Source of the DNA: Marsupella aquatica
Lineage: Eukaryota; Plantae; Marchantiophyta
Assembly: GCA_973895155.1 (NCBI GenBank)
Contig: OZ316892.1
Span: 29,518,932 to 29,582,931, forward strand
Reading direction: 5' to 3'
DNA length: 64,000 nt
The notes beneath the pieces are model-generated. The model made no database searches. It had not been told where the DNA came from and saw nothing but the letters and a program-made list of their open reading frames with translations. This document shows positions 17,570-58,419 of this stretch, in pieces; the stretch's first letter is position 1; every line of letters starts with the position of its first letter. Position numbers and translations under genes: made by a program.

Positions 17570-18100
17570 TCATGGTATATGATCCCTTCTGATCATGGCA
17601 CATGAACAATCTTTATATGATCCCTTCTGATCATGGCATATGAACAATCTTTATGGCAAAAAGTAATGGATTATGAATTTAATAGTACATAATGTTTTTG
17701 TAAGTGATTAAGGCCATGACTTTTGAAGTTCTGATCATAGTTGATCATGGCATATGAACAATATTCATGGCAAAAAGCTATGGATTATGAATAGTCCATA
17801 ACTTTTTGTCAGTGGTTAAGGCCATCAAGTTTTAAGGTTTGAGACCCCCTCATAACCTTGTTGTCTGTGGTTAAGGCCATCAGTTTTTGAGGGTTGAGAC
17901 CCCCTCATAAGCCATGGTTGATCATGGCATGTGAACAATCTTCATGGCAAAAAGTTATGGATTGTGAATTTAACAGTCGATAACTTTTTGTCAGTGGTTA
18001 TGGCCATGGAGTTTTCAGGTTTGAGACCCCCTCATAAGCCTTTTCGTCAGTGGTTAAGGCCATCGAGTTTGAGGTTTGATACCTCCCTCATAAGCCATGA
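17570..18100. repeat. Complex imperfect tandem repeat array
   Basis: Repeated GATCATGGCATATGAACAATCTT(T/C)ATGGCAAAAAG and GTGGTTAAGGCCATC...GGTTTGAGACCCCCTCATAA modules. Confidence 0.75.
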
Positions 18101-25968: not shown

Positions 25969-26271
25969 TGTGATACCATTTGTAAGAAACCATCGCCTCA
26001 TATTAGATAGCAAATCCTGAATATAAGAGCACACTCAATCAGATGCTACACCAACGACACACCACAAGTGGAGAAACTCCTGAAAGATCCATAGCTTATG
26101 AGAGTACATGTGAAAAATGCGGGAGAGAATGTTCTCCCTTCAACCTATACTCCCAAGTGGGCTGAGATGTGTAAGTCTAAACTAAGCTGATTTTATTGTA
26201 ATATAATCAAGGGTTAATTAACCCTACTAAGGCCAAACTAACTGAAGTAAACTCAAGTCAATTCCTAATAC
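25969..26271 (-). mobile_element. Truncated LTR retrotransposon remnant (5' LTR plus PBS)
   Basis: TGATACCA (reverse complement of tRNA-iMet PBS TGGTATCA) immediately beside a TGTAAG terminus at 25981; far end approximate. Confidence 0.5.
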
Positions 26272-27233
26272 TTTTTGTCCTATGTGGAGGGAGAAGGGGC
26301 TTGCTGAATTTTTGGGAGGTGAAGGAGCTTGGGAGACGTGTCAGGGAGTACAACCTTTGAAGGTCAGCAACAAGAAGATGCTTCAGAGGGGCCATGTTGA
26401 GGATTCAGAAGTTCACAACTAGGTCGTGCAGGAAATAATGACGCAGGTTCTGGAGACTTGACAACAAGGTGCTTGCCATAGATTTTATATCTGCCGTCAA
26501 AATCATAAACTCCCACAATGCGAACTTAGACCTAGGGCTAGGTTCCATGGGGCTAGGAGTGAGGAGTACACATATGTGCAGGACAGAATGTTTAAGCCAA
26601 TCAGAATTGCAGCTTTTCTAAGGACTAAGGAATGTACAAATAGTAGGGAGTATGATTTTCCATCAAACTCCCTCTTGAACTTCAAGGGTACCCCCTGGTG
26701 CTGTATACTAATAGTACCAGGCCTTTTCATTGGCTTCTATGTCAAAACTCCTACATTAAAATATTGTGTATACCTTGGGCATATGATATATTTGGGCCCC
26801 GAGGGGTGTGATCTTACTCCCTCCCCCTGGCCCATGGAACCTAGCCCCTAGAGTCCCATCCAACAACTCATCCTACCAGAACTCCAACTGTCAGGTTGCA
26901 AATATCAGAATTTTGTATGGCCATCAAGTCAATTATTTTTGGCCTTGAAAGCCAAAAATAGACCCATCCAGCATAGGATAGATGTTCTAGTTTAGAATAT
27001 GCACCATTGTAGGGTAGTCCACAAGGGATCCAACAGGGACACTCACCAGGAAGGAGAGAGGGTTGAACCAAGGCCCAGCCAGAGGTTCACGAGAAACAAG
27101 ACTCCCACCACTATACCCTGCCCACACCACACCCCTTGTGTGTGGAGGGGGGAATTACACCTGGGACCTCTTCCTCTAAGCTCATCCTCGAGGTGTGTGG
27201 AAGGGAGGATTGAACATGGGACCTGCCATTCTA

Positions 27234-27502
27234 GGCTCGTAAATCCTGTCAGGAGAAGAGGTTACCGGTGTGTAACCATTTCTGCAGGGGCCTCCTATAA
27301 TCATAATCTGGTGTCCTGAAAAGTTGAGCCGGTAACCTCTTTCCGGGCAGGAGTTACGTACCCTAATGCAGGGCTGGGGTTATAGTGTAACCCGCTCCCG
27401 GAATATTCAAAGAAGCTTCCCGGCTGCCGCCAGTCAATTTCTTTTCATATTCCGGACGCAAGGTTACAGCCTAGTAACCCTTCCCCCAGACCTGCATTAC
27501 CC
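27234..27502. mobile_element. Two small abutting inverted-repeat elements (MITE-like) inside the SINE copy
   Basis: CGTAAATCCTG..GAAGAGGTTACCGG pairs with CCGGTAACCTCTTC..CAGGAGTTACG; TAATGCAGGGCTGGGG pairs with CCCCAGACCTGCATTA; absent from the copy-B counterpart. Confidence 0.55.
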
Positions 27503-27537
27503 TATACATCCCCTGGCCAACTAACCAAAACCACTAG

Positions 27538-30500
27538 TCAAGCCATTTCCCAACCATCCTTTGCATTTGCCTTTGCAAACTCCTCGTTCATCATCTTCAC
27601 CATCCCTATTCCCCCTACTCTCGCTGCCTCCATCACAGGCGTGCGCCCGGTTTTATTGCCCGCCCAAATATCCGCCCCGCCTTCAATCAGTCGTCTGACT
27701 ATCTCCTCCTGTCTGTTGCACACCGCAAGTAACAGCGGCGTCCATCCATGGATACTGCTTTTCGCCTCCACATTCGCTCCTCTTCTTAGCAAGCACTCGG
27801 TGGCAGCAAGGTGTCGCTCAGCCGCGCGCATCAGTGGAGTGAAGTTGCCTTCGTCTTTAGAATCGAATTTCTGGCTCGGTGCCTCAATGTTCGCGCCGTG
27901 GTCCAAGAGCAGCTCAATCATCTCCACTCCTCCGTAGAAAGCCGCTTCCGTCAAACTCGTCCAGTCGTCTTTGTTACCCGCTTCGATGTATGCCCCTTTC
28001 TCAAGAAGCACCCGTGCCACGGCCACTCTTTGGGCCCATGCGGCTTTGCAGAGCGGCGTGTAACCACTCTTATCGGGGATGTTAGGATCTGCACCGGCGG
28101 AAAGTAGAAGGGACGCTATTTCGTCGAATCCGTTCCATGCTGCTACTTCGAGTGGAGTCCAGCCTTCGATCTCTTGGGTGGATGGGTTCGCACCCGCGGC
28201 GAGAAGCTGGGAGACTATGGCGGTGTGGCCGGTTTTGGCTGCGAGGTAGAGTGGGGTGGCGAGGCCATGGTCTTGACTGTCGATAGCTGTGCCGCGAGAC
28301 AGGAGGAGGGCGACGATTTCAGGGTAGCCGAGATAGCATGCTTCTGTTAATGCGCTCCAACCGTGTCTGTTTTGGGCATTGATATCTGCGCCTTTGTCGA
28401 GGATGAGTTTCACGTCATCGACATAGCCGTCCATTGCTGCTCGATTTAGGGGCGTGTATAGAAAGCAGTCTCTGGCATGGATGTCTGCACCGCTGTTGAG
28501 GAGCAGTCGTGCGATTTCCCAATGACGTTGCCAGAGAGCCTCACACAGAGCAGTGTGCCCTATATGCTTCGACTTGGTTTCCATGTTTGCTCCGGCCGCG
28601 ATCATCAGCTGTACCACCTCTATTTGGCGGTGAACGACTCCAAGCAGAAGTGGTGTCCAGCCTTCATCACCAACGCGAGCCTCTTTGTCAGCCCCGTGCT
28701 TCAGGAGCAGCTTGACAACTTCTATTCGGCCATTTTGACATGCTCCCATCAAGGCTGTGTATTGGTGTCCGTTTCGTGCCTCTACGTTTGCTCCCTGTTC
28801 GAGAAGACGGCCCACCGCTTCAGCATTACCAGCCCAGGCTGCGAAGCCAAGAGCTGTATCGTTCTTTTCCGGATTCCTATCCTCGAGGGAGTGGCCAAAC
28901 CTTAGCATCCATGATATAATGAAGTCATCTTTGGCGTAGTCCAGCGCAGTCTTCCCTTTGTCGTCTTCAACACGTTTATCAGCTCCTTCAGAAAGCAAGA
29001 AGCGAACAAGAGGCTCCCGTAACTGTATCGAAGCGCAATGCAAGGGCGTTTGGCCATTATTATCATCCGCGTTCAGCTTTGCACCCCCTCGGCGAAGATA
29101 TTTTGCCAAGTCAAGATTGCCACAAGATGCTGCAACATGCATGGCTGTTTGACCATGTTCGTTGAGTGAATTAATCATATGCGGGTTTATGCGAAGGAAG
29201 CCTCGAAGGCTCGGCATGTTCCCTTCCGCTGCTAGCTGATGTATCGATTGAGCTTCCCCGTTAAAACCAGTAGACGCTGTCTCAGGTTTGTTCTACCCTC
29301 GCATCCACAACAACAATTAGTTTTAACCAATTCATTTGTTTGAGTTTCTTGAATGGAGAAACTTCAGGAAAACTACAAATGAATCCACGCACTCTCATTC
29401 CAAAAGACTTGAACACCTTCATACTGATACTCTTACAAATGTTGCAAGGTAGGGTATTCATAGAACAAAACGCAAGTATCAGCTCAGGACAAAGGAATGT
29501 TGCTTCGACCAACTTGGGATTTACCTGTTTTTGAGATTTATTCGTGCCTCTCATCCTCAAATAAAAACTTGTGACAGTCCTGAGCATCTCTTTGACGTCT
29601 TGTAATGGAGTATCAATACCCTGAATTTGCTCCGGGACATACTGCAAATTTCTGGGGCAAGGATCTTCCTGAAATTTCAACAACAATGTCCTGAGCAACT
29701 CTTAGACCTGAGCATGACAATGGAGGTTTGGACAAAAGGTAACAACTCTTAGACCTGAGCATGACAATGGAGGTTTGGACAAAAGGTAACAGTCTAAGTA
29801 GGCAATAGATGGAAATGTCAAACTTCAAGTGGATGGACATATAATAATCTGAACATATAAAACAGCCTTTTGGTTTAGGGTTTAGGGTGGACGAAATCTA
29901 CCTTCGCGCTGTCGATTGCGTTGTGAAGGAGTCCTGTGACAGCATTGAATCTTCGTGAGGTTTTAGAGGGTGGTTTCGATATGGAGAAGTGGTCTGCTGT
30001 CTCCACATTCAACTCTCCTTCCCTGGCAGATGCTTCTGGGACTACAACAATATCTCTAAACACACCCTGCCAACAAACCAAGGACAGTCCGCTTGGTAAT
30101 TGAGAAAGTTGAGACGATTCCTTGAGAAGGTTCAGACGATTCCGTCAGACCGATCTACATGTGTGAGCAAGCCAACGAAAGAAAATTCTATCTGTAGATT
30201 TGACAGGCGCTTTGCATACAGAGAAAAAATTTCATATTGCGAAAAAGGATAATTCCACAAAATAAATCAAATCAGATAACTGCTCCACTGAACAAGCTAA
30301 GCATTGTAGTTTTGAGTGTATGAACTACTAGCAAGCTCATCGTTTCATGGATCAAATGATTGTCGGACTTCATGCAATAGACTAATTCCATTTTGTTAAA
30401 CAGAAGGAAAGATAGATCGGCAACAATCAGATGAGGAGGAAATTGAATTTGTACCGATTGTACTGAACGATTTTCTGCGAGTCCTTTGATTTGCCATTCC

Positions 30501-31502
30501 GAATTTTGAGTACACAAAAACCTGAAATTGTTATTTAGCCGCTCTCCCTCCGTACTTAGGGTGTGAAAGTACTTGAATAAAGGGCTGTCCAGAAGGTCTG
30601 CTGCTTTATCTATGTGAGGGATACCATGGTGAGGTGTGGCGTAGTAAAAAATCCCTCTAATTCTATTTAGAAAGTTCTCAAGTTGAACCCTGCCATTCCT
30701 GGACCCGCTACGCAGACTGAGTGTCTCATGTGCTTCCCAGCATAATTGCTTGATTACCAGCCCCCCCACAGAGTGGCCTACCAACACAACTGGGCAACCT
30801 TTCACCTGCCCAATCTTTCCTTGCATCAGATCTGATAGCAGGTTTTCCCCAATTATTTTCATGTCAAACGTCCTCCGAGAATCTTTGCTCAGGCCCTCGC
30901 TGTACCGAACGACAAACACATGAGCGCCTGGAAACTCTTCCACCAACCAGGTTTGGGGCCAAAGATTGGAGGATCCATCCCCGCACTCCCACGTCGATAA
31001 GTGCACCCTTGACGACTTCGCAAATGGGAGCCCATGGAAAAACAACACTTGAACTCTGGGAATTCCCGATGGCCTGTGCAACTCGATTAGGGAGTCATTC
31101 ACCTTATAAGACAACCAATCACAAATACAGTAAGGCAATCGATGTATCCAACTCTGTTGCACCTACTGTAGCTGAATTTCGGTGGGAGAGGTGCCTGTAA
31201 GATTCCGGAAGAAACTGACAAGCAAATAGAGAAGCTATGCATATAGAGAGAACCCTCCTGGCAAAGTGTTAAAAAGGTCACTATGCATTGGGGATTATGC
31301 AGTCTAGAGAAATTACCTCAAGAACATCCACTTTGACTCCTGAGGGCCGAGAAATGTTTCGGCGACATCGTACTACGAACCCGGTCAAAGCACTGCCGAC
31401 CATGAAGCACCAGACAACAAGGACATCGCGTGCCTTTTCTCTGACCACTAGGGTCGAAGCTATGATGGCAAGGGTTAGAACAACCCAATGGGGTAGATCC
31501 AT
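27538..31502 (-). CDS. Predicted chimeric TM + SesB-like alpha/beta-hydrolase + ankyrin-repeat protein (965 aa); exons 31502-31317, 31102-30455, 30066-29902, 29668-29525, 29292-27538
   Basis: Hydrophobic first exon; hydrolase motifs FFHGL, WPQTWL, GHSVGGL, ATPHHG, DHFSISKP; intact ANK ORF of about 16 repeats. All junctions are GT-AG and phase 0. The last acceptor (GGTAG|AAC) is the weakest part of the model. Confidence 0.6.
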
Positions 31503-31695
31503 CCGTAGCTGGAGGAGGAGACGGAAGCTCGTCTGTGGCTTGCTGTCACAATCTGGTGCTCCAAATCTAAACCCTGCAAATGGCCCTAGTATTACTCAAC
31601 TGTTCAGTTTCATCCTCCACATGGTTGCCGCTCGGAGGAAACGAGTGCCTGGAAATTTAGTGGAAATCGCTCGTCTTGCACCGTTGGACATTCTA

Positions 31696-31897
31696 GCCTG
31701 GCCTGATAGAGTGATTGCGAGAGCTTGACATTTAACATTTGTAGATCGATTGCTACTGCTTCGGTGTCACTATTTTCTAGTAACGCTCCTTCCTTGCTTT
31801 TGTAGATGTGGTACCCTACGTCGACAAGCTTGATGGAGAAGTCCACCACTTGGACGACGGTGCCAGCCAGGTCGAAGGCTGTGATGGGGTCGATCAT
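31696..31897 (-). pseudogene. Stranded 5' end (~67 codons) of the ancestral HeLo-like-ANK gene
   Basis: MIDPITAFDLAGTVVQVVDFSIKL...QSLYQAR is nearly identical to the start of the 55909-58419 ORF; homology ends abruptly at ~31696. Confidence 0.85.
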
Positions 31898-32279
31898 GGT
31901 GAGAAAGTCGAAATCAATTCGCAAATATTAAAGAGATGAAGATGATCAACTCATCGACTGTGGCAATTGATGAAAATTTAAAGTTACGCGATGAATGCAA
32001 GGTGAACAAGCATCCACGACTGATTCAACGCAGTTTAATCGATGGAGATGTCGCTCGTTTGGGGCTGAAGCCTCGGACGAACAGAGATTAGGAGATTCTT
32101 GGCTTCAAGCTGCCGCTGTCGTTCGGGTGATCGATTACTTCCGGCAATTCAGGCTCGAATGCGACCCTCTTTCTGTCACTCATGCGTTCGCTCTCTTGGA
32201 AGGGGCCAAACCCGTTCTCTACGCATCAGTCGCTTTAACAGACCAAGAGCCAAAGAAGTCCCTCCTGGCCTCTTGAGCT

Positions 32280-32945
32280 CAACCTCCCCCATAAGAACGC
32301 TCGGCCTGTCGATAACACTCGTATTGTTTCGGAGCCTCGAGACTCTCCTGAAATCCGCAATAGCCATACGCTCCTCACGCAATACACCCACGCCCATTCC
32401 CGTCAGCAACTGACTCTAGCTTCGGAATTCTTCATCAAAGGCAATCCCCGTGTCTTGTTCACCACCGCGCACCCCAAATTGACAGCTTAGCCCCAGAGAT
32501 CGCGTCCTTGGGCCGCTCGAATGTAGGCAAGAGCAGTCTGTTGAATGCTGGTCTTCGGAGTCGACGGGCTAGCAAGGACGAGCAGCAAGCGAGAGAAGAC
32601 GAAAATAATGTGCGGCTTTGTCGTGGAGAATAACTCTACGGGGAGAAAAGAGGAGGAGAACGGGATCAATGGCGAGCTCGTAGTGCTGGATATGCCTGGC
32701 AGTGGGCATGGCAGTGGGCATGGCAGTCGAGAGGCTTGGGGTAAAGACATTGTCAAATATCTGGTTGCACGCAAAGTGAGTCTTCCTACTCTCCAGTTGC
32801 AGCGTTATTTTTCCAGTTGCAGCGTTATTCTCCAATTGCAGCGTTAAACGGATTCACTCCATTATCCCGTGGCCCTCACTAATTCTTCCTCCAACCCCAG
32901 ACTCGCCGCGCGTTGGTCCTCATAGACGCGGTCCACGGCCCGTCG
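32280..32945 (+). pseudogene. Decayed EngB/YihA-type GTPase, copy A; a partially duplicated continuation lies at 38410-38680, beyond the transposon
   Basis: G1-like GRSNVGKS across frameshifts, LARTSSK, LVVLDMPG (G3), GSREAWGKDIVKYL; intron GTGAGT(32777)...CTAAT...CCAG(32900). Confidence 0.8.
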
Positions 32946-33276
32946 CTTTGGTCCTCAAAGACCCGGTCCATGGCCAAGCAATCCACGTCTTCCTACTCTC
33001 CAGTAGGGCGTCTCAAACTTGGTGGTCCAAGTCTTTTCCGGGACGGCCGTCCCCCCAAGTTGAGGTCCGAAACGGTGACTGGAACCGCAGTTCCGGGTGA
33101 GTTTAAGCCTGGGGGTACTAACTTTGAGAGGGGTCAATAAGTGCCCCCCCCCCCCCCCGCGGATTACACAGACTTCCAAACCAGCCCCCGCCCATGTGTA
33201 GTTCAAAATGCAAACTTGCCACGGCGTGACGGAGTGCTTCCACTCCTCACAATGAGCACGTCAATTCGCGCATATT

Positions 33277-34762
33277 TTGACAAAGAGCCATGAATGTGCA
33301 GCCGTTTTGGCTGAGAGATTTGAAAGTTGTCGTTCCCCCTCAGAATTTCTCAAAAATTTGGGTAGTGCGAGTGAGGCTCCTCATATGGACTATACGATGG
33401 ACCACGATGGTGTTAACTTTGCAGGTGAACGTGTTGAAGCAGAGCACTTTCAGTTTTTGGATTCGCCCCCTCTGATTGTGAGCGATTCTCAGACAGTCGA
33501 AGCGATGGTGGTTGCTGGTGCATCAGCTGGAGCACAAGGAAGACCTGCACCACGTCCGGCCGTGAACATTCCTACTGAGAACAAGAAGTTGTCTAGGGAG
33601 GACCTATCAAAGATCGTTGATTGGCTTGAAAAAGCTGATAACTATGCGATGCTTCATGGGACACAATCCAGGCTATCGGTTGGCGATAAGCATCTGTCGA
33701 AGAAAACTGTGTTTAAGCTTATGCTTATTATGCTGCATTCCAACGGATTTGCAAAGTTTGTCCAAACAGGAGAGAATTTGGGCAAGAGATTTGGCAGATA
33801 CACGAGCAAGTTTAAGGAGGCGTTGGCAATGAAGAATGATTCGGGTGCTGGGCTCACCCTGGCGAGCTAAGAGTGGGGATTACACTTGACGATAAGCTTG
33901 ACAAGATATGCCCGCACTTTGAAAGGATGAATGCACTTTATGGGGAGTGTGCTAATGTGGCTCCTCCTGCACTAGGGCAATGCGGTATCCCTGGACAGCT
34001 TGAGCTCATATATGATCCAGGATCTGATGAAGACGAGCCCTATGGTGACAGTGTTGGCCCGCAACAGGATGAATCTGAGATGGCTGGCGACAACGGACCA
34101 CAGACGCAGCACGAACGGGAGCACGAAGGCGTGACCAATGCTGGTGTTGAAACCGAGGCCCAACCTTGCGCCACTGAGCAGGGTACTGCTAATACTGGGA
34201 CACCAGGATATGTTGAGGAGGATCACAAGCTAGGCCAATCCCAACTCCAACTCCGGTCGGGAATGGGCAAAGGCGGGTTCCTAATAAGAGATCAGCTCCA
34301 CCATCATCACAGGCACAGTCAAGGACAAGTATGGCTGATCTTTATTTAGATAAGCTTAGTGACAAATCGTTGTACAAACGAGAGATGATCCAGACCAAGG
34401 ATAAGTGGAGAACCCAAGAATTGGTTGATAGGCGAGAGGCGAGAAAAGTTGTTGCAGCTCAGCTAGACAAAAACAACCGATTGCAGAGGATGCAAGTAGA
34501 CAAAAACAATCAAATGCAAAGGAGACATGAGGAGAAGAGGGCACGGTTGGAGCACAAACACCAGGTGGATTTGATTGATCGCCAGCAGCACACAGCATTA
34601 CTTACCGAGCTTGTTAGGAGCAACAGATCAAAAGATGAGTTGGTAGCGCTATTGAGTATTTTCCCCCCTGGTCCTCTCAATGTCAATCCACCCGGAAGGA
34701 CTCGTCCTCCTACTACTGCAATGCCATGTGCTCCCAACAATCCAATTGACTTAGATGAATAG
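33277..34762 (+). pseudogene. Second (Myb/SANT-like DNA-binding plus coiled-coil) ORF of the Harbinger-group element, frameshifted
   Basis: IVDWLE...KRFGRY..KFKEA...SGAGLT...LDKICPHFERMNALYG; frame changes at ~33865 and ~34330; charged coiled-coil C-terminus. Confidence 0.65.
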
Positions 34763-35376
34763 TTTTTTTACATACACTTAGCTGCACATTACCCAATGTT
34801 GATGCAGCCTTCCAAACATTGCTCTGTTGCAGGGCTCAAATTTTGAATAAAGGTTCTCTTTTGTGAAACGGATGTGTTTTCAATGAAGTCCTCTTGAACT
34901 GATTTGTTTGCAATTCTCAAGTGGATCCTATTTGTTCTTCTCTCTGGACATTGACAGTCTGGGTATATAAGCATGCATCTCCACTGCTCTTTGCAACACT
35001 GGGCTAATTTCTGAAGATCTCCATTGTAGACTGGATCGTGCATTGAAAACTTCCTTCATTCCAAGACAATAGAAGCTTTACAAATCACAATTGTATGTCT
35101 TCAAGTGCTCACAATGCAAGCACATATTTTAGAAGTGGAGAGATTACAAAAATGCAGAGCCAAGCTTTTAAATGCTCAAGGCATTTGACTAAGTTGGTAC
35201 CAAACTTCAACTTGTAACTAATTAAACTACAGCCGATCATTGGCTTTAATCATCTGCTACCTCCTACCACCAAGTAACTCCTACCAGCTACGCTTAAGTC
35301 CTCCCAGTTATGTTTGAACAAGGAAGCCGATCATTGGCTGTTAAACAAACAGATCCTATGAGCTATGTTTGAACAA

Positions 35377-36925
35377 TCAAGCTTCACGGTGTCGAGCACG
35401 GTGTAAAAATTGCCCCGGTTGACGATAGTATTCCAAAGCAGTATCCATAACTCGAACTAGTAGTGCATTGCCAGCTCGCACCAGAGCACGTCGCGAAACT
35501 ACCCCAGGATCTCGCTCTGCATCAGCCGGTCCACCAACATTGGGCTCTGGATAGAAGTCCTCCTGGGTTTCACCATCTTGCTCTCTCTGCAGCGCAATAT
35601 CCTCGGGTGTCCATGCATCCTGCCTGTGAAGCACATAGTTATGCAATTTCCCACACAAATTGATCCACCTTACCATCTATAGGCTGTCCTTCTTTGAATT
35701 CAATTGAGTTCGAACTTCTTTTAAAGAATGCCATCTGCTCTTCAAAACTCCAATGCAATGCTCATTGGTTACCCTGCACTTGGCAACACAAGTATTGAAG
35801 TTCTCTTTATCTGGTACCATGTCAGTCCTTTTAAATGCGGAAACCATGTGTGGAAGGGCCTGATAGCCTGAATCTCCTAAAATGTACTGGTCAGATTCAA
35901 ATAGAGCATTCCTTCTGACATCAGTCAGAAAGGAAAAGAGTGGAGACTTTTGCACACAAGTCAGGTCGGAGCATGATCCAGGCATTCCTGCAGCAAGGCA
36001 CAAATAGCAGCAGTCATTGGTTGATACTGGATACTGCTGCCTCATGCAACATATTCAACGTTGAAAATAACTGCTCACCTAAGAACAAGAACATGATTAT
36101 TCTGCGGTGGTCACAGACCACCTGAACATTTATGGAGTATCGACTCTTGCGATCATAGTAGCACTCTCCATGAACGCCAGGACTTTGAGCCAAGGGGCAC
36201 AGGCTTCCATCAATCAGACCGATACAGCCTAGAAATCCCAACCTTGCAAATGCCTCCAAACTTGCAGCTCGTTCCCTGTTGGTAGGCCACTGGATATAGT
36301 CGCTTAAAACATCATCCAAAGCCTCAAAGGCACGTTTTGAGTAGTTGACAATTGAACCACAACTCACACCCCATGTGGGGATCATATGATTTAAGCAAGC
36401 ACCATTCCCATCATGACCAAGCCTGTCTAGGCAGACAGCTAATTGGGCCTCAATAGGTGCTTGCTGACAATTAGATTCATTCTTGAAGACAGGGTGTCCT
36501 TCAATCAAGCCTAGAAGGTGATAGAAAGAGGACTTGTCCATCCTAGTGAGCTGCCTAAACAAAGGATCTGCCAAGCAATGAAAGAACTGTTGTGCAAATT
36601 CCTTAGATTTCAGGCTCACATGACGATGAACAAAATAACAACGAGTATTATACAACACAAAATATAGCTCTAAGAGGTCTGTTGGATTCTCATCATTCTC
36701 TAAATCCTCTTCCCTGTTTTGATCCTCAAATGAGCTATCCAAAGGCAAGTCTGAATCACTGTCAGTCCTCTCAGAAATATGAGAGTCAACTTCAGAGAAT
36801 CCATGGAGGTCGAGATCTTCAGATCCAGTATCTTGAGAACTCTTCAAACTCTGAACAACAATGGCTAGTTCAAGTTGCTGTTTGACTCGTTTCAAGCCTC
36901 TCTGCTTGTCTGAAAACCCAGGCAT
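35377..36925 (-). pseudogene. Harbinger/HARBI1-type DDE transposase; exons 36925-36079 and 35987-35377; one premature TAG at 35677
   Basis: FRQLTRMDKSSF, CIGLIDGS (D), YYDRKSRYSINVQVVCD, GMPGSCSD, LGDSGY (D), NEHCIGVLKSRW (E), LHNY. Confidence 0.92.
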
Positions 36926-37087
36926 GTTCGACCCTAACAGTTGTGAAGAAGTGATAAAGTCAGTTTATACCAAAATGAGCCAAATTTTATTCAATAAGTA
37001 TAAATTTCATTCTAAGCTTGCAACATTGCGCATCCTGAAAGTGTATACATCCTGAATATGAGGGTCGAGTGCATACAATTGTAATCC

Positions 37088-37720
37088 CTAATCCGAGTCC
37101 TCTAAATCTGCATTCTTCAATTGCAACACGAGGTCTGCTAGGATTTTCTTGGCACTCTTAGGTTTCCCAAGACTGGACTTTGGTTTGACAAGGGTTTTTG
37201 TAGGTGTCCTGGGAATTCCAGGATCCACAAAACTCAATCTCTGAATGTGCATCTCGAGTCCCTTCACTTCAAGAGAGAATTGTAGCTTGGGCGAATGCTT
37301 TAGAATGTCATAAACAATCTGAATTTGCTCAAATTCAGGTAGAATGTTGAATTCAAGTGCTGTATAATTCAAGAGAATGGTAGCGCAATTCCACAGTAGG
37401 ACTGTCACAGGCTGCACACCACCATGAATGGCATCAAACAAGACCAGTTGGAATTGAAAGGCAGGTTCTCTAGGTAAGTGATGTCCACATTTATCGCCCC
37501 ATTCTAAAGATTTTTTACATCGATGGCCATCATTGTCCCTATGAGGGCAAGAGGAGTAAACAAATTTTCGAGGGTAGGGATTTCGAGCTGTGTAGTTTGC
37601 TGCCCAAACTAAAGACGGTGCAAACTGCGTACTCATTCCTCTAGCCCTCTTCTCCTCCACGTCTGACAAAGAAATCCAATGAGCCATGGCCTCCTGGCAA
37701 ACGATGAAGCATTCAGCCAT
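37088..37720 (-). CDS. Transposon-borne ORF resembling the RPA70 C-terminal zinc-ribbon OB-fold
   Basis: FVYSSCP-x7-CKKSL-x5-CGHH...FQFQLVLFD...VLLWNCATILLNYTALEF parallels the RPA1-C pattern WYxACPxxCxKKV...C...YxLxxxxxD...FdxxAxxLLGxxAxEL; intact ORF inside the TIRs. Confidence 0.55.
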   Translation of the reverse strand: MAECFIVCQEAMAHWISLSDVEEKRARGMSTQFAPSLVWAANYTARNPYPRKFVYSSCPHRDNDGHRCKKSLEWGDKCGHHLPREPAFQFQLVLFDAIHGGVQPVTVLLWNCATILLNYTALEFNILPEFEQIQIVYDILKHSPKLQFSLEVKGLEMHIQRLSFVDPGIPRTPTKTLVKPKSSLGKPKSAKKILADLVLQLKNADLEDSD

Positions 37721-38870
37721 TTCAACATCCCTTGTCCTGGTTGTGAGCATTGCAGGAAACAAAAGCGGAAAAACATTGAGGTGATCTTTAACTTACAATC
37801 AGGTGTGAGCCGAGTGCCAAACAATCGGGGTCGTCCTGCAAGTATGCTCAGTTGTAGCCTCTCAGGATGTCGAAGGTGGGTCCTTTCCACTCAGCCGTAG
37901 TTTTGTTTACACTCACTTGCAGCTCCTCACTGGCAGCTCCTCACTTGTAGCTGCTCACAAAATCGAGCATCAACATGCAGCTCTAGCATGTCAGCCTAAA
38001 GCGATCTAGTGTACTCTAAATGACTTGCTTAAGTGGGAGCCCAAAACCATAACAAACTTACAGGAAAAAAGTGTCAATCGCTATGAGTTGACAGCCTTGC
38101 GATCATGGGCGCCTTGCATGTAGTCGCACAAACACGCACAGTGCGAGAAGGAATAGTCAGCCTCAACAGTTTCTCTCTCGCGTGCATCCCCGGCTTCTTT
38201 GTCGCGCACAACTAGGTTCTCTGTCACTGCGTCCCTCAGACGATAGGGTTAGTCATGGACCCACTCGGGTCACGGTAATGGTAATGTGACCGTCCGAGTT
38301 ATTGATGGTCACCAATTTTGGGCACCGCCCACTTTCCGGTCACGGCCCTGCCCGGGCAATTTTGGACAGTAAAACGACCCGGGAAATTGATAGTTTGAGA
38401 CACCCTAGTTGCAGCGTTATTTTTCCAGTTGCAGCGTTATTTCTCCAGTTGCAGCGTTAATCTCCAATTGCAGCGTTAAACCGATTCACTTTATTATCCC
38501 GTCGCCCTCACTAATTCTTCCTCCAACCCCAGACTCGTCGCGCATTGGCCCTCATAGCCACGGTCCACGGCCAAGCAATCTGATCGTTTCCTTCTCAACC
38601 TTCTCCGTGAGAGTGCAATCCCACATCAAATTCTCCTATTAAAGGTCGACCGCTTGATCACTCTCGACCTCAAGAAGGACAAGAACCCCGAATTCAAGGT
38701 TTTATATAACTTTTTTTGTATAAGAGATTGGAGATTGAGTTGAATAAATGTTTTTTTAAATAATAGTTTTAATTTGAGCAGGTGTTGATTCCAAATCTAG
38801 TTAACAGAAACGATAGTCAGGAAAGATCGCCAGGAGAAACTTATACGGTTAAGGGAGGCACCCGTCGCAC

Positions 38871-38917
38871 TATGAGGTATTATAATCGACCTATATGGTC
38901 GACTATAATACCTCATA
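38871..38917. other. 47-bp palindrome (21-bp arms, 1 mismatch, 5-bp spacer)
   Basis: TATGAGGTATTATAATCGACC-TATAT-GGTCGACTATAATACCTCATA. Confidence 0.9.
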
Positions 38918-40182
38918 ATGAGACCAGTGTCATCCTTAGCATTACGTTAATGAAGAGGGGATGTCTTTTCAATCGTCAGATCACATCCAGCTCTATCTGG
39001 ATCGTTAATTCAAATTAGACGTCAAGTGATCACTATTGGCAGGAATATTACTATATTAGGTGAAGCCGGCCCTACCTAAAACGATTCCTTGGACACTGCA
39101 TGCGCTCATTTCTGATTCGCTCATTTCTGATTTGCTCATTTCTTTGCACTCATGGTCTGCAGGGGATCGTTGCCTTGGGAAGTCAGTGGTTCTGTCTGCA
39201 GTCTGCTCAACGGATTTTGCTTTGGACATTCGAGGCACATTGGTTTCTGTCACCTATCAGTCACTGAGGTGAGGTGAGGTGGATCGATGCTTTCTTCTAT
39301 AGTGGTAGCGGTAGTCGTTGCAGGTTGTGGAGCAGTTTCTCGTCCATAGGAATATTGCTAATTGTCACATTTGGACGAGACTAAACGTCGGGAAGGCAGG
39401 TCATCGTAAGCGGTCATCTCATCGCATTTGATTCAATGAGGGAGCTCTCGCCCAAATGGTGATCTCTCGGATTGCTTTTTGAGTCTTTTACGTTCTGTTG
39501 GATTTTAGTCATACTAGCCGGTGTACGTTCAGAGATTGAGCATTCTGCCCTCGCGCTTTGCTTTTGTTCCTGTCCCTCTGCCTGTGCGCACACTGATGGA
39601 TTATGTGTATTCCATCGATGCTTTCTCAATGTTTGACTGATTTATTTGCCAATCGCAAGCAATGTTTGACATCAAATGTGAAGGCATTCAAGACAATCAG
39701 TGTGCGTATTGTTTTAGTTATCATTTCTGCTAAGACAAGTCTATCTCAAATGCTTGGACGTCCGTAGGTATGCATGGATGCCCGGAGGTGATTGACGTTC
39801 TTCTTGACAGATGTGACGAGAGGACGAGGCAACTTTTAGAATACTGTTGTTGAGGAGTAAGCGGCTGACTGACTACACAGATCAAAATTGAGGTAAGTGC
39901 TCTTACCTTGCTTACTGTTCTTTACATTCAATCTCGCTCAGTGGTCAAACCAGTGAATACAAGATGGCACTTCGCTCGCCTACTCCATTTGCCTCGCTCT
40001 TTATTTCACTCGCCTGTACTCGCTCATCAGTTCGCTTGCCGTCAGCGATCGGTCTCGCTCACCTTTTGGCATCGGCCTCACTGATTGTTTCGCTTGCCTG
40101 CTGCCATCGGTCTCGCTCACCATTTTGCATTCCTGTTGCCATGGGCCTAGCATTTTCTGAGTATCGTCTAATGGGGCCAGCG

Positions 40183-40467
40183 CTCGGGGGGTTGAGTATC
40201 AACAATCTTAGGAACCACGTGCGATCCAAAATAGGTATTTTTCATATAAATTAGCTAAATTTTTAAAAAGTATAGAAAGCAAAAGAAGGTATTATAAACC
40301 TATATTTGTAGAATATTCTCTAATATATACCTTTTATAAAGTAAAATAGGTCATTAATATTGAAAATAGAGAATTTTTTAGAATATTCCCATTATAAAAT
40401 AGGTGTGTTTATATTAGGCTAGGATCGCACATGGTACCCCAAAATATACACTAAGTTAACCCCCCAG
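40183..40467. mobile_element. AT-rich MITE with 8-bp TSD, nested in the Crypton-like element
   Basis: TSD GGCCAGCG (40175-40182 and 40468-40475); ends CTCGGGGGGTT / AACCCCCCAG; sub-terminal IR GGAACCACGTGCGATCC / GGATCGCACATGGTACC. Confidence 0.75.
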
Positions 40468-40482
40468 GGCCAGCGAAGCAAT

Positions 40483-42382
40483 ATGGCCACTCCACCACCA
40501 AGAACAATGGCCAATCCATCATTCAGCATTGGCATGTCTGTTCTGCACAACTCTATGATCGACAATGACTCTAGGACAAAGGGTGCTGAACCTGCGTATT
40601 CTGAAGCCACTTTAGAGCCAGCAAGTGTGGTATTATTCAATCCGTTATCGTGTGACTTCAATGATCTCAGTCTGGACAAAAACACGCTGAAGTTGTTTGA
40701 TGCGTTGAATGCTGATGTTGATAAAATCAAAGTAGAAGCACCTGTTAGCCAATAGGTCCGTGTCACCGTCGAAGGTCAAACTCCCTTTGAGTTCCTTGCT
40801 GAGGATGAAGCTTTCCAGCAAACCATTGTTGCTGGCGGAGCAAATCCATCTGCTGCTGTTGACAAATGGGCTTGAAATCATCTTGACAAGTATCGTAGGT
40901 TCAAGGGTTGGGAACCATTGTTACCTTCAAGGATCTGAGTCCAGCAGACTGTAGCCTCTTGCTCACGAAGGTCTTTGAGCAGGTAACTAAGAAGGACGGT
41001 TGTCTGTATCCTAGCCAGACCCTCATGGGGCTCTATCGTGCATCCCATCGAATGCTACGTCGGAAACAAGAGAGCCGATGTAGCTAACTGGTGTTGATGA
41101 GCCTACATTTTGCATGAGAACAAGTCCCTTGTTTAAGAAAGTAGGCATTTCTTGTGTCTTAGCGATGGAGAGATCGAGGCGTGCTGGAGCAAACCTGCCG
41201 CGCAAGAAAGCTACTATGATTTCGCTTTCAAATGAACAGACAATACTTACTCACCCTTGCACTAGTCGCAGCCATCCTAGAGGATTGCAAAGAAGATGTG
41301 TTTATTACTTGTTATGCAGGTTTGCTATTCGTGGTGGGCAAGAGCTTTACAAAACCAAATTGACGACGCTGGTCAGTTTGTGAGATATGATGAACATTTG
41401 TCGAAGAATTATCGTGTTAGCCTGGACCAATATCAGGAGGAACACTTTCGACCTGCTGAGACAGAGCATGACTTGGACATGGTGCAAACAGTAGCTGAGT
41501 TGATTAGCCATCTCCCTCTATCTAGAACATTTTTGTTTTCTCAGTGCATAGATAACCCACGCACTATGGCTTGGTATTCTACATTGCGTGTGTCTACCAA
41601 GAAATTGACTGGATGTTTAAAAGAAGTGCACAAGGAATTATGTGGATTGGATGTGGATGCCATTTCTAACAAGTCAGGGAGAACTACATGTGTCACACGG
41701 ATGGCTTCGGAGGGTGTACCACCTGCAATTGGAATGAGGATCACAGGGCACAAGTCACAAGGTGCCTACAGTAGATATGACAGGTCAGTGGAGGCTCAAG
41801 TTTGTGCTGCCCAACGATCTGCTGGTGAGTGCAGTGCATATAACTCAAATGTGCAGGAAGAGACAGACCTCTTCAAGAACAATGTGATTTCAGGTTCAGA
41901 TGAACATGAACCTCCTGTTTTGAAGAAGGCACGTTCAGAGAGTGGAGGTAAGGATTGTAATCTTTGAGTGCTTGTATTCTTGAGTATTGTTTCACTATTT
42001 TATCCTCATTTGTTAACTGTTTGTCTAAAACTTTGTTGGATGTTTGTTGCAGATATATACTTCTGCTAATGACAGCAGTGATGTCTCGATGTCTACTCCT
42101 ACAATGGAGCCTCCAGTGAAGCCAGTATCTATGGAGGAGTTGACTCTGGCAGCACTGAGTCCTGAGCAGAATCGTGTGGAAGGTGGCAAGAAGGCTGGCG
42201 ACGAAGAGCAGTGGATGGATATGTATGACTGGGATAATTACATGTCCCCCTGGGACCGTGGTAGCAATGTTCAAAATGTGAACCCAATCAATGTTGTTCT
42301 TGGTAAAATATCGTCAATGACCAATTGCACTATTAATTTCAACATCAAATCTCTGGGATCAGTGCCAGGTTTAGATCAGTAA
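40483..42382 (+). pseudogene. Frameshifted Crypton/DUF3504-type tyrosine recombinase
   Basis: VTKKDGCLYPSQTL, RKKATMISLSNEQTIL, FAIRGGQEL (R), EHLSKNY (K), SNKSGRTTCVTRM (R), ITGHKSQGAYSRY (H, Y), C-terminal NCTINFN tail. Confidence 0.8.
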
Positions 42383-55699: not shown

Positions 55700-56051
55700 G
55701 GTTCTAGGCTTATCCCCTGGCCAACCATCCCTCAAGCCATTTCCCACCCATCTCTCCTCTCCTTTACCTTCTCAAACTTCCCGGTCATCATCTTCACCAT
55801 CCAATGTCCCCCTACTCTTGCCGCCTCCATCACACGCGTGCACCTGGCTTTATTGCCCGCCCAAATATTCGCACGAGGTTTTAGGCTCATCCCCTGGTCA
55901 ACCAGCCTTCAAGCTATTTCCCACCCATCTCTCCTCGCCTTTGCCTTCTCAAACTCCTCAGTCATCATTTTCACCATCCCATGTCCCCCTACTCTCGCCG
56001 CCTCCATCACAGGCGTGCACCCGGTTTTATTGCCCACCCAAATATCCGCAC
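55700..56051. repeat. ~177-bp tandem duplication of the ANK gene 3' end plus the SINE head
   Basis: AGGCT(T/C)ATCCCCTGG..AACCA..TCAAGC(C/T)ATTTCCCACCCATC...CCCAAATAT(T/C)CGCAC occurs twice. Confidence 0.85.
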
Positions 56052-58419
56052 CGCCTTGAATCAACCGTCTAACTATCTCCTTGTGTCTCTTGCACACCGC
56101 ACGTAATAGCGGAGTCCATCCCTCGATATTGCTTTTCGCCTCCACATTCGCTCCTCTACTCAGAAAGCACTCCGTAGCAGCAAGATGACCTCTCTCAGCC
56201 GCGCGCATAAGCGGAGTAATGCCGCTTTCGTCGTTCAATCGCCACTGTCCATCAACGAAATCTTGTTGATGGCTCTGCCCCTCAATGTTTGCGCCGTGGT
56301 CCAAGAGCAGCTCAATCATCTCAACTCCGCCGTAGAAAGCTGCTTCCGTCAAACACGTCCAGTCGTCTTTATTACCCGCTTCGATGTATGCCCCTTTCTC
56401 AAGAAGCACTCGTGCCACGGCCACTTTTTGGGCCCATGCGGCTTTGCAGAGCGGCGTGTAACCACACTTATCGGGGATGTTGGGATCTGCACCGGCGGAA
56501 AGTAGAAGGGACGCTATTTCGTCGAATCCGTTCCAGGCCGCTATTTCGAGTGGAGTCCAGCCTTCGATCTCTTGGGCGGATGGGTTCGCACCCGCGGCGA
56601 GAAGCTGGGAGACTATGGCGGTATGGCCGGCTTTGGCTGCGACGTAGAGTGGGGTGGCGCGGTTATGGTCTTTAACGTCGATAATTGTGCCGCGAGACAG
56701 GAGGAGGGCGACGACGTCAGAAAATCCGAGATGGCTAGCTTCTGTTAGGGCGCTCCAACCGTCCTTGTTTTTGGCATCGATATCTGCGCCTTTGTCGAGG
56801 ATGAGTTTTGCGTCATCGACAGAGCCGTCTATTGCTGCTCGATGTAGGGGCGTGTAGAAAAGGCAGTCTCTGGCATGGATGTCTGCACCGCTGTTGAGGA
56901 GCAGCCGTGCGATTTCCCAATGGCGTTGCCAAAGAGCCTCACACAGAGAAGTGTGTCCTGTATGCTTCGACTTCGTTTCCATGTTTCCTCCGGCCGCGAT
57001 CATCAGCTTTACCACTTCTATTTGGCAGTAAACGACGCCAAGCAGAAGTGGTGTCCAGCCTTCATTACCAACGCGAGCCTCTTTATCAGCGCCTTGCTGC
57101 AAAAGCAGCTTGACCACTTCTATTTGGCCATTTCGACATGCATTCATCAAGGCTGTGTATTGGTATCCGTTTCGTGCCTCTACGTTTGCTCCCTGTTCGA
57201 GAAGACGGGCCACCGCTCCGGCATTACCAGCCCAGGCTGCGTAGCCAAGAGCTGTATCGTTCTTTTCCGGATTCCTATCCTCGAGGGAGTGGCCAAACCT
57301 TAGCATCCATGATATAACGAAGTCATCTTTTGCGTAGTCCAGAGCAGTCTTCCCTTTGTCATCTTCAACACGTTTATCGGCTCCCGCAGAAAGCAAGAAG
57401 CGAACAAGAGGCTCCCGTAACTGTATCGAAGCACAATGCAATGGCGTTTGGCCATTATCATCATCCGCGTTTAGCCCTGCACCCTTTCGGCGAAGATATT
57501 TTGCCAAGTCAAGATTGCCACAAGATGCTGCAACATGCATGGCTGTCTGACCATGTTCGTTGAGTGAATTAATCATATGCAGGTTCATGCGAAGGAAGCC
57601 TCGAAGGCTCGACACATTCCCTTCCGCTGCTAGCTGATGTATCGATTGAGCTTCCCCGTTACATCTAGTAGACGCTGTTGAAGGTACCTGAGGCTGAGCT
57701 TGACCTGTCGAGCCAGGCTCTGGAGGGACCGAACGAAGCGTAATGAAAGTATTCAGCATCTGCCTCGTCTGCTCATTCTGGGTGATCATTATCGTGGACA
57801 GCAACTGTGTCTGAATCTCTAGATTGTTCGTGAATACACTCCGATTGTCATTCAGCGCATCCATCACCTTCCTCGTCTGCAGATCCAAGCCATTAAAGCG
57901 TTCCGTCTGGTGATCATCCATCAATTTCAGCCGCTCCCTCAATGACACCAAGATCCTCGTATTTAACTGGTCTCGATAAGTCTTCAACCTCGCCGCCGTC
58001 GCATTCAACTCATCCTTACTCCACACCGTCTTCAGTGCTTGACGTATGCTTTTCCACTCCCGATGCTTCCCTCCCTGGCTGACCTTCAACGTCCGCAATC
58101 TCGAAATCAGCTTCTCGGCGATATCATTGCATGCATTGCATAGAGATTCAAGTGCTTTGTCATCCTCATCTAGGTCACTGGATGTGCTGGGTAGTGTCTG
58201 CCTAACGGCGATACTCTGCCTGGCCTGATACAGTGATTGCGAGAGCTTGGCATTTAACATTTGTAGATCGATTGTTACTGCTTCGGTGTCACTGTTTTCG
58301 AGTAACGCTCCTTCCTTGCTTGTGTAGATGTGGTAGCCTACGTCGACAAGCTTGATGGAGAAGTCCACCACTTGGACGACATTGCCAGCCAGGCCGAAGG
58401 CCGTGATGGGGTCGATCAT
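55909..58419 (-). CDS. Intronless fungal-type HeLo-like N-terminal domain + ankyrin repeat protein (836 aa)
   Basis: N-terminus MIDPITAFGLAGNVVQVVDFSIKL...EN...CNDIAEKL...WKSIRQALKTVWSK...RLKTYRDQL matches the pattern of ascomycete STAND N-terminal (HeLo-like) domains; about 16 ANK repeats (GWTPL..A). Confidence 0.85.
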   Translation of the reverse strand: MIDPITAFGLAGNVVQVVDFSIKLVDVGYHIYTSKEGALLENSDTEAVTIDLQMLNAKLSQSLYQARQSIAVRQTLPSTSSDLDEDDKALESLCNACNDIAEKLISRLRTLKVSQGGKHREWKSIRQALKTVWSKDELNATAARLKTYRDQLNTRILVSLRERLKLMDDHQTERFNGLDLQTRKVMDALNDNRSVFTNNLEIQTQLLSTIMITQNEQTRQMLNTFITLRSVPPEPGSTGQAQPQVPSTASTRCNGEAQSIHQLAAEGNVSSLRGFLRMNLHMINSLNEHGQTAMHVAASCGNLDLAKYLRRKGAGLNADDDNGQTPLHCASIQLREPLVRFLLSAGADKRVEDDKGKTALDYAKDDFVISWMLRFGHSLEDRNPEKNDTALGYAAWAGNAGAVARLLEQGANVEARNGYQYTALMNACRNGQIEVVKLLLQQGADKEARVGNEGWTPLLLGVVYCQIEVVKLMIAAGGNMETKSKHTGHTSLCEALWQRHWEIARLLLNSGADIHARDCLFYTPLHRAAIDGSVDDAKLILDKGADIDAKNKDGWSALTEASHLGFSDVVALLLSRGTIIDVKDHNRATPLYVAAKAGHTAIVSQLLAAGANPSAQEIEGWTPLEIAAWNGFDEIASLLLSAGADPNIPDKCGYTPLCKAAWAQKVAVARVLLEKGAYIEAGNKDDWTCLTEAAFYGGVEMIELLLDHGANIEGQSHQQDFVDGQWRLNDESGITPLMRAAERGHLAATECFLSRGANVEAKSNIEGWTPLLRAVCKRHKEIVRRLIQGGADIWVGNKTGCTPVMEAARVGGHGMVKMMTEEFEKAKARRDGWEIA

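Follow-up and report, generated by a model that had tools for sequence, protein, structure and literature searches.

The window, a 64,000-nucleotide stretch of DNA from the liverwort Marsupella aquatica, contains two tandem duplicates, about 28 kb apart, of a HeLo-like/SesA-class ankyrin (ANK) gene, and in one of them, copy A, 539 bp have been replaced by 2,415 bp of a liverwort hydrolase–NB-ARC–LRR (Hyd-NLR) gene. The rearrangement in copy A is real, and we are highly confident of the anatomy and of the two origins of the resulting chimera. Our account, to which we give an even chance, is that this is a young chimera in which part of a Hyd-NLR came to lie in a duplicated, likely fungal HeLo-like–ankyrin gene, with a predicted membrane-anchored, lipase-like hydrolase joined to an ankyrin array as its product. 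NLR domain swaps are known inside fungi and inside plants, and fungus-to-bryophyte transfers are also known; judged from its sequence, the locus is a new, cross-kingdom case of Hyd-NLR shuffling with a putative function.

Anatomy of the Replacement in Copy A

On one side of the insert, copy A (31696–32984) is homologous to copy B (58218–59538), and on the other, 27538–29280 is homologous to B 55909–57678 (89.6%). Between these flanks, B 58217–57679 (539 bp) gives way to 31695–29281 (2,415 bp), in agreement with an earlier note on this DNA that described the exchange of an ~540-bp HeLo-like stretch for an ~2.4-kb insert on the same strand. The insert matches a Calypogeia protein at 58%. The same note placed a gene at 27538–31897; the chimeric ORF does lie there, but it starts at the ATG at 31502 rather than at 31897. 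A PIF/Harbinger-like element is found 1 kb upstream of the chimera and a copia element between copies A and B, a transposon-rich setting. The features are as follows.

55909..58419, minus strand: copy B, intact intronless HeLo-like/SesA-class plus ankyrin gene, the unrearranged paralogue (836 aa)
29281..31695, minus strand: insert of 2,415 bp from a liverwort hydrolase–NB-ARC–LRR gene, standing where copy B has 539 bp of its own
31610..31897, minus strand: HeLo-like/SesA-class N-terminal remnant, an upstream ORF of 95 codons, of which 67 are homologous to B and 28 come from insert sequence
31317..31502, minus strand: predicted exon 1 (186 nt, 62 aa), hydrophobic (19-residue hydropathy peaks of 1.75 and 1.99), the least certain exon
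30455..31102, minus strand: exon 2 (648 nt), α/β-hydrolase core, nucleophile elbow with Ser173, conserved Glu272
29902..30066, minus strand: exon 3 (165 nt), C-terminal part of the hydrolase with Asp303-His304; 65% over 51 aa to the Calypogeia fissa Hyd-NLR P0013
29525..29668, minus strand: exon 4 (144 nt), NB-ARC lead-in followed by the first half of Walker A in altered form, fused in frame to the final seven codons of the NB-ARC exon
29293..29524, minus strand: intron 4, probably the native NB-ARC/LRR intron of the parent, with a CTAAT branch-like site and a TAG acceptor at 29292
27538..29292, minus strand: last exon (1,755 nt, 584 aa), 4–12 nt of the parent's LRR exon followed by a fungal-type ankyrin array

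Predicted Gene Structure

As had been proposed, phase-0 GT-AG splicing is predicted to join the insert to the ANK exon. The predicted gene has five exons, all in phase 0, with 965 open codons and one terminal stop, and its four GT-AG introns measure 214, 388, 233, and 232 nt (AT 58–62%). Both new junctions are in frame, against a chance expectation of 1 in 9. Homology searches of the spliced chimera were run exon by exon; for exon 1 they returned no significant homologue, the best being a weak likeness to a TM-hydrolase N terminus (E = 0.081). Six ATGs lie upstream of the ATG at 31502, the first of which is in strong context and opens 95 codons; these would lower translation if the transcript begins at the B-type promoter. 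We consider it slightly better than an even bet that the chimera is spliced and translated.

Liverwort Origin of the Hydrolase

Exons 2 to 4 align as a single block to P0013 (58% over 315 aa), with an N-terminal α/β-hydrolase of the bryophyte NLR type (E = 6.6e-77 to P0013), and in a 36-row tree the chimera hydrolase is sister to P0013 with a support of 0.915. Search and tree both place these exons closest to liverwort Hyd-NLRs, which bears out the plant origin expected for this half, and the GHSVGG, DHFSISKP, and NB-ARC lead-in peptides reported earlier are all present. By itself, exon 2 scores under the curated cut-offs of DUF676, Abhydrolase_6, or PGAP1 (20.3 vs. 26.3; 18.3 vs. 20.3); its relatives pass them, and its first match in the Atlas (0.97) has DUF676 on 50% of its members. 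No solved structure similar to exon 2 by sequence was found. The catalytic Ser173 and His304 are retained, the histidine being present in all 36 aligned rows, and Glu272, Glu289, or Asp303 are candidates for the acid residue. Because cysteine replaces the catalytic serine in 41 of 150 relatives (the best 150 of 1,275), catalysis may not be what this hydrolase family needs.

Probable Deletion of the NB-ARC Domain, with ANK in the LRR Slot

The insert had been thought to carry a fragment that ends before any P-loop. Instead, exon 4 contains an altered half Walker A and the tail of the NB-ARC exon. Comparison with paralogue contigs, the ends of which were read by hand from a table, places the break near 29548–29557. 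At 29565/29557 paralogue contigs part from the window and go on to encode a complete Walker A, G-M-G-G-L-G-K-T, and one X4 contig joins the window at 29547, coming from K-A-L-E-L-L-Q, which P0013 has at 633–639; the spacing of eight residues from this motif to the exon end is identical in the X4 contig and in P0013. From these contig ends we infer that ~300 NB-ARC codons were deleted in frame. The chimera has no match to Pfam NB-ARC, and an NB-ARC profile built from 42 relatives matches the lead-in alone.

In the paralogue contigs, the intron 4 region shows many 1-nt indels and then an LRR-start continuation, and contigs that diverge at 29289/29290 follow the TAG frame, resembling the LRR start of P0013 at 648. 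The paralogues continue in frame past the TAG to where the LRRs begin, which favors 29292 (TAG) as the acceptor, as the earlier reading required, rather than the GAG lying 5 nt upstream. The TAG-frame pattern matched 3 of 150 proteins, including P0013 at the corresponding place, and the GAG-frame pattern matched none of the 150. The C terminus of the chimera is devoid of LRRs and consists of ANK, the LRR exon being reduced to a few nucleotides. The swap went in the direction first suggested, but its meaning needs correcting: the NB-ARC was lost internally, and ANK stands where the LRRs would be, behind an intron that belonged to the parent.

We also considered intron 4 as decayed NB-ARC coding sequence behind a cryptic donor and dropped this idea, as the paralogue ends give another account of exon 4. 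No NB-ARC remnant stood out in intron 4 by profile search (best frame −1.5 bits vs. a median of −2.1 for 300 shuffles) or by frameshift-aware alignment (13.5, a score reached by 6 of 60 shuffles). Between samples, 8 of 104 nt of exon 4 differ, and among the changes listed 5 of 5 alter amino acids. Because each run has essentially a single version across the deletion (X1, 26.8/26.8; X4, 38/38 at 29553), the eight-change version (X4/X5) is more likely an allele than a second donor gene that had lost its NB-ARC.

Copy B and the Fungal-Type Parts

Copy B has the architecture of ascomycete HeLo-like/SesA plus ankyrin proteins that lack a NOD, and its first 165 residues are 44% identical to Bogoriella megaspora KAI9708018.1 and 55% to Toensbergia leucococca MCJ1231860.1. 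In contrast to these proteins, it resides in a plant genome and has been duplicated, with one copy rebuilt. All named relatives of copy B are ascomycete proteins, with no named plant match, and its N-terminal domain and ANK are closest to fungal or unnamed metagenome proteins. The fungal origin claimed for the ANK half therefore holds to the extent that the nearest named relatives of both parts are fungal. In a 15-row set, mostly of unnamed rows and with no plant row, copy B groups with both named fungi (89/89, not starred). Its closest full-length relative, P0001 (55%), could be a plant copy; a metagenome scan for the P0001 locus gave one unrelated ANK locus among 184 stretches. Copy B is likely a fungus-derived gene kept intact in the plant.

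The C-terminal array matches Ank_2 (E = 1.8e-122), the ANK parts of A and B are 86% identical in protein, and Pfam NACHT or NB-ARC is found in neither copy. The N-terminal domain is harder to classify. Copy B itself does not match the Pfam HeLo-like/SesA families (PF17111, PF17107); SesA is matched by 9 of 23 aligned rows of this domain at E ≤ 0.1, with 5.4e-5 the best value, and PF17111 by one. In the Atlas, the copy B N terminus matches at 0.94 clusters with HeLo-like/SesA families on 11–27% of their members. Its model is all-helical (pLDDT 77.7), and fold searches returned general helical bundles, below the bundle-specific level (best Z 11.0, rmsd 3.7, 156 aligned); the rows listed included neither an MLKL nor a HET-s chain. 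The function of HeLo-like is given as unknown in the part of PMC4986451 available to us, and a "death domain" or pore-forming identity of the lost domain would rest on a weak family link.

Junction Support, Selection, and Alternative Readings

Since contigs of three studies bridge the 3′ insert/ANK junction (X1 29234–29318, X3 29042–29318, X5 29236–29343), this junction is no assembly error; X1 could derive from the source sample itself. In X1 and X2, contigs also run from the ANK stop into a repeat of high copy number (27452–27922), and the window holds a plant ALMT gene beside the copia element. Against this, bryophyte assemblies often carry fungal contaminants, according to the accessible part of PMC11228847, and at the 5′ junction (31695/31696) no bridging contig appears among the pieces listed. 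An assembly chimera of plant DNA and a fungal contaminant is nevertheless largely refuted and, in our view, extremely improbable. A real and possible alternative, though a lesser one, is that the rearrangement is recent and the locus silent or poorly translated, a pseudogene in the making: the insert would have disabled one duplicate of a foreign gene that may be toxic, and the frame would be open only because the event is young. The 95-codon upstream ORF with its five further upstream ATGs, the destroyed NB-ARC, and the transposon-rich surroundings fit such a locus, and a stop-free frame is not improbable at 1–2% divergence: under drift alone, with indels excluded, it persisted in 36% of runs at 1% and in 5% at 3%. 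Five sequencing runs cover the introns, with no splice joints, and behave as DNA. The A vs. B dN/dS is 0.41 for ANK and 0.23 (p = 0.019) for the 5′ remnant, and A/B identity is patchy (86–97%), which points to gene conversion between the copies; because the remnant is also low and identity is patchy, the ANK value cannot be credited to the chimera and is uninformative here. Derived ANK residues number 16 in A and 13 in B (53 unpolarised), with no excess change in copy A. What speaks against silence is that two independent junctions are in frame, that the native splice sites are intact, and that the arrangement is common to three studies. In addition, among 12 indels listed of 34, all 3 in the predicted CDS are multiples of three and 7 of 9 outside it are not, with the reservation that 2 of the 3 may stem from paralogues.

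Expression could also begin at the B-type start, giving either the HeLo-like remnant spliced to the hydrolase, a protein of at most 1,039 aa, or, as main product, the remnant peptide of 95 aa. Donors at 31681 or 31819 and an acceptor at 31508 are in frame for the former, and no pyrimidine tract in the region is richer than that of this acceptor (16/20), which lies two codons ahead of the ATG at 31502. The remnant is open, with the low dN/dS given above, and retains predicted helix 1 and most of helix 2. However, the in-frame donors match the plant consensus, AG/GTAAGT, poorly, and the low dN/dS may date from before the insert or reflect conversion, so we regard these products as quite unlikely. 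Less probable still is that the chimera holds copy B in check or acts as its decoy, binding B or its trigger through the same ankyrin array without a death domain and without killing. The close likeness of the ANK parts, the presence of both copies in the runs, and the signs of conversion would suit this role; a plain truncation would suffice for it, though, and the hydrolase residues have nevertheless been kept.

Comparison with Known Systems

The chimera resembles bryophyte Hyd-NLRs/HNLs (e.g., C. fissa CAM6118605.1) in its hydrolase N terminus (59% in exon 2), its NB-ARC lead-in, its exon-end motif, and the position of the intron ahead of the repeats, but its NB-ARC is deleted and its LRRs are replaced by fungal-type ANK. 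A hydrolase with another domain and no NB-ARC is also seen in liverwort-type fusions (hydrolase-LRR, -B-lectin, -U-box, -DnaJ, -caspase, -NAM, and -PP2). Such fusions, with partners that are gene predictions, are frequent in the plant family (found among the 76 of 150 matches that were scanned), which makes the chimera less surprising. It differs from them in having a partner likely drawn from another kingdom; its two parents and its breakpoints are also still recognizable. No hydrolase-ANK protein was present among the best 150 of 1,275 hydrolase matches, nor in the ANK search (2 matches at E up to 1e-100; 7,996 scored; lengths 319–1015).

In fungi, as described in the part of PMC4986451 available to us, SesB-like NLRs combine an N-terminal DUF676/Abhydrolase_6-class hydrolase with C-terminal ANK, and HeLo-like domains are traded for hydrolases. 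Those receptors retain a NACHT or NB-ARC, however, and the chimera has neither; moreover, its hydrolase is of plant lineage and the swap took place in a plant genome. The proposed convergence on fungal SesB–ANK architectures is thus a loose one. Fungus-derived defense-type genes in mosses, a truncated HET domain and KP4 (as cited in PMC11228847), are likewise fungal non-self or cell-death modules transferred to a bryophyte. The present case involves another domain, and fusion with a host NLR is not mentioned in the accessible part of that paper.

A Possible Origin and Mechanism

An ascomycete HeLo-like–ANK gene probably came into the plant genome and was then tandemly duplicated. The middle of one copy was then taken by a piece of a Hyd-NLR gene that runs from the 5′ flank of that gene to shortly beyond the NB-ARC/LRR intron, and the NB-ARC codons would have been lost in frame before or after this insertion. 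The parent's own splice sites are predicted to link its exons to ANK in frame. Lacking an ATP switch, the protein would most likely work through its ankyrin array, which would bind a partner and so cluster or free the Ser-His hydrolase at the membrane. The output would be lipid hydrolysis or cell death, as with other liverwort hydrolase N termini; two from M. polymorpha cause HR-like death in N. benthamiana, according to the available part of PMC11218826. An immune or cell-death role for the chimera is tentative, and we think it somewhat unlikely. More doubtful is the fuller reading in which the LRR exon of a Hyd-NLR was swapped at its native intron for acquired fungal ANK, possibly by way of a hydrolase–NB-ARC–ANK stage with the layout of fungal receptors, to give a working switch-less receptor acting with or on copy B.

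One locus here combines NLR domain shuffling with probable cross-kingdom transfer, with both parents and three breakpoints legible, and a plant exon border has taken a foreign repeat array in frame. Copy B alone is of note, being a probably fungal gene of the HeLo-like class that a plant has kept whole. A silent locus would still document clearly, though with modest interest, how liverwort hydrolase fusions originate. Were it expressed, it would mean that immune components acquired by transfer can become part of host receptors, and the chimera would offer a natural NB-free construct for probing the role of the hydrolase of bryophyte NLRs and its dependence, if any, on the ATP switch.

Architecture of the Chimeric Locus

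The chimera of a liverwort hydrolase-NB-ARC-LRR receptor (Hyd-NLR) and a likely fungal gene is real and well resolved. It arose in copy A, a tandem duplicate of copy B, an intact intronless gene with a putative HeLo-like/SesA-class domain and an ankyrin array (ANK).

58419-55909, minus strand: copy B, a single 836-aa ORF encoding a helical domain at the N terminus, followed by an ankyrin array
31696-32984 and 27538-29280: B-homologous blocks of copy A
31695-29281: insert between these blocks, 2,415 bp of non-B sequence in place of 539 bp of B

As the earlier note had claimed, hydrolase exons replace copy B sequence within a 965-aa frame; the predicted gene has five exons, 965 codons, and four introns, all phase-0 GT-AG. 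Because B-like sequence flanks the insert on both sides, the plant piece entered the duplicated gene and not the reverse. The tandem duplication unit, ~28 kb, is far larger than the gene (matching scattered blocks at 26271-43686 and 54753-63957), and its copies carry different later insertions. DNA contigs from sequencing runs X1-X5 were compared with the window. Near-exact contigs cross the insert/ANK junction in X1, X3, and X5 (three studies; X1 is possibly the source sample), and contigs of X1 and X2 run from the ANK stop into a high-copy repeat; no contig among the pieces listed bridges the 5′ junction.

The window is plant DNA, containing an ALMT gene (13020-15039), a copia element, and a PIF/Harbinger-like transposase. 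The copia element (47587-53133) has 443-nt LTRs that are 100% identical, and its gag-protease-integrase frame contains three single in-frame stops. It has no detectable reverse transcriptase and is, judging from its sequence, a very recent non-autonomous insertion. The PIF/Harbinger-like element, with repeated ends, lies ~1 kb upstream of copy A (32792-38676; DDE_Tnp_4 pieces at 35677-36964, opposite-strand ORFs at 33256-34762), and copy B has a related end in its upstream flank (59346-59633). The last 175 nt of the copy B CDS are duplicated head to tail just past the stop (55700-56051; 89%). Elsewhere are an 859-codon, Ser/Pro-rich open frame with no Pfam match (69-2648), degenerate tandem arrays (9880-10980 and 17620-18100; units of ~100 nt and 55-60 nt), and an ORF (41281-41967) that weakly resembles tyrosine recombinases (Phage_integrase at E 0.0024, short of the cut-off) and may be a DIRS- or Crypton-like remnant.

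The Insert Derives from a Liverwort Hydrolase-NB-ARC-LRR Gene

A search with exon 2 returned 1,275 proteins at E ≤0.001, headed by P0013, a Calypogeia fissa hydrolase-NB-ARC-LRR protein (CAM6118605.1); of the 12 nearest relatives looked up, 9 are from C. fissa and 1 is from Marchantia paleacea, which makes a leafy liverwort or a near relative the likely host. In a 36-row tree of the window hydrolase and the 35 best full-length matches out of 150, the window sequence is sister to P0013 (support 0.915), in agreement with the plant origin proposed earlier for this half. The alignment of exons 2-4 to P0013 is continuous (58% across 315 aa), in support of introns 2 and 3. The catalytic-type residues Ser173 and His304 are both present. 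The equivalent His is found in 36/36 aligned rows and the Glu272 position is acidic in 92%; the Ser elbow is kept in 68/150 best relatives, with Cys there in 41/150. Exon 1 is hydrophobic, as is the N-terminal extension in 8 of the 83 relatives with a comparable one, and shows no significant sequence match.

Exon 4 had been described as an NB-ARC lead-in that stops before the P-loop, but paralogues indicate otherwise. Four runs were compared over 29200-29760, with contig ends translated by hand, and three kinds of paralogue contig end occur among those listed. In 4/4 runs, paralogue contigs track exon 4 as far as 29565 or 29557, beyond which they encode an intact Walker A, G-M-G-G-L-G-K-T, against R-M-R-G-T-N-K-S in the window. 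One X4 contig enters the window at 29547 from K-A-L-E-L-L-Q, located at 633-639 in P0013, after the VHE motif (607); eight residues separate it from the P0013 LRR start (648), and eight from the exon 4 end. The paralogue ends and P0013 spacing thus suggest that exon 4 consists of both ends of an NB-ARC exon, joined by a putative in-frame deletion of about 300 codons (P0013 about 338-640). Contigs span the deletion point in 4/4 runs; those of X1 and X3 match the window exactly, and those of X4 and X5 carry 8 changes/104 nt. At 29289/29290, X1, X4, and X5 contigs diverge and, in the TAG-acceptor frame, encode N-I-H-S-L-R-L or N-L-H-T-F-R-L, resembling D-V-H-A-L-R-L at P0013 648. That paralogues continue into the LRR start in this frame removes the concern over a GAG acceptor. 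Intron 4 is probably the parent gene's NB-ARC/LRR intron, since a native intron fits the many 1-nt indels among paralogues and no NB-ARC remnant lies inside it; ANK starts 4-12 nt into the former LRR exon. These readings of exon 4 and intron 4 are based on 30-nt ends, and the K-A-L-E-L-L-Q join comes from one contig.

Copy B Is Likely of Ascomycete Origin

The first 260 residues of B gave 6 matches out of 2,017 candidates; the first 235, with shorter lengths allowed, gave 15 out of 442; and the copy A ANK gave 2 out of 7,996 at E ≤1e-100. The fungal origin proposed for the ANK half agrees with the sole named relatives of B, from Bogoriella megaspora and Toensbergia leucococca, both lichen-associated ascomycetes; the closest match, P0001 (55% across full length), is a metagenome cluster. 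Both named relatives combine the N-domain with ANK and lack a NOD, as in B. No plant is among the named relatives, though proteins of C. fissa and M. paleacea belong to the searched collection. Among the 15 short matches, nine end at an identical residue, which we read as a putative shared fungal intron. Copy B was likely transferred from an ascomycete.

In the Atlas, the N-domain lies at 0.94 beside the PF17111 and SesA clusters (commonest taxon, Ascomycota; the fungal NLR preprint names PF17111 Helo_like_N, the Pfam used here PigL_N), and a SesA match occurs in 9/23 rows aligned with it. Copy B itself has no Pfam match to PF17111 or SesA, and its N-domain model is a predicted helical bundle with unspecific structure matches, leaving the "death domain" identity as a lead. 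Copy B has no match in one supplementary file of PMC12513842, a study whose HGT/NLR data could list it.

Evidence Bearing on a Working Gene

In favor of a working gene, both new junctions keep the reading frame, the splice sites are native to the parent, and the catalytic Ser and His are retained. Counting against a working gene are six upstream ATGs, the first of which opens 95 codons; this remnant (31610-31897), in which helix 1 predicted for the HeLo-like-class domain survives, could be translated separately. The ANK dN/dS is 0.41 (p 4e-7), but that of the 5′ remnant is also low (0.23), so the former is no evidence for the chimera, and most A/B divergence may be older than the insert. Also in favor, ANK in copy A is not sped up (16 derived residues vs. 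13 in B, 53 unpolarised), and among the 12/34 indels listed, 3/3 inside the CDS are in frame and 2/9 outside. The listed ANK differences are copy-B bases in 13/13 cases, with only the B base at three sites in X3 and X4, which suggests gene conversion between the arrays; A/B identity is patchy across 27988-28473 (97% beside 86-90%). Allele divergence in the insert is ~1-2%, against ~6% plus indels for the closest intron paralogue listed, indicating a young locus. Under simulated drift alone, the frame stays stop-free in 36% at 1% divergence and in 5% at 3%.

Proposed Mechanism and Relation to Known Receptors

The predicted product would comprise a hydrophobic anchor, a Ser-His alpha/beta-hydrolase, a 48-aa linker, and the ankyrin array. 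As NB-ARC is absent, a nucleotide-switched resistosome mode would be excluded; in the simplest model, ANK would bind a partner and so cluster or free the hydrolase at a membrane. Two M. polymorpha hydrolase domains expressed alone are described as causing HR-like death in N. benthamiana (PMC11218826), so the domain may be able to act without NB-ARC; the biochemistry of the bryophyte NLR-type domain is described as still unknown (PMC10952240).

The chimera derives from a Hyd-NLR but, having no NB, falls outside that class, and the proposed likeness to fungal SesB...ANK proteins holds for layout but not for membership among fungal NLRs, for the same reason. As described in the respective sources, HeLo-like/SesB-like swaps are known from fungi (PMC4986451, Table 2), fungus-to-bryophyte gene transfer is common (PMC12513842, PMC11228847), and Marchantia hydrolase-NLRs are confirmed (PMC7145615). 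A literature search, mostly of titles and abstract beginnings, returned no hydrolase-ANK chimera and no HeLo-like gene in a liverwort, and ANK occurs in 0/150 best hydrolase relatives. Among the 76 of the 150 best matches scanned, NB-ARC-less hydrolase fusions involve B-lectin, U-box, DnaJ, caspase, NAM, PP2, and LRR (all but the LRR type predicted in P0014, P0027, P0033, P0039, P0041, P0090, and P0141). The chimera is a variant of known domain shuffling, with an NLR of a liverwort as one parent and a gene likely from a fungus as the other, and the bryophyte NLR-type hydrolase appears from these protein sequences to be a promiscuous, broad, and little-described module.
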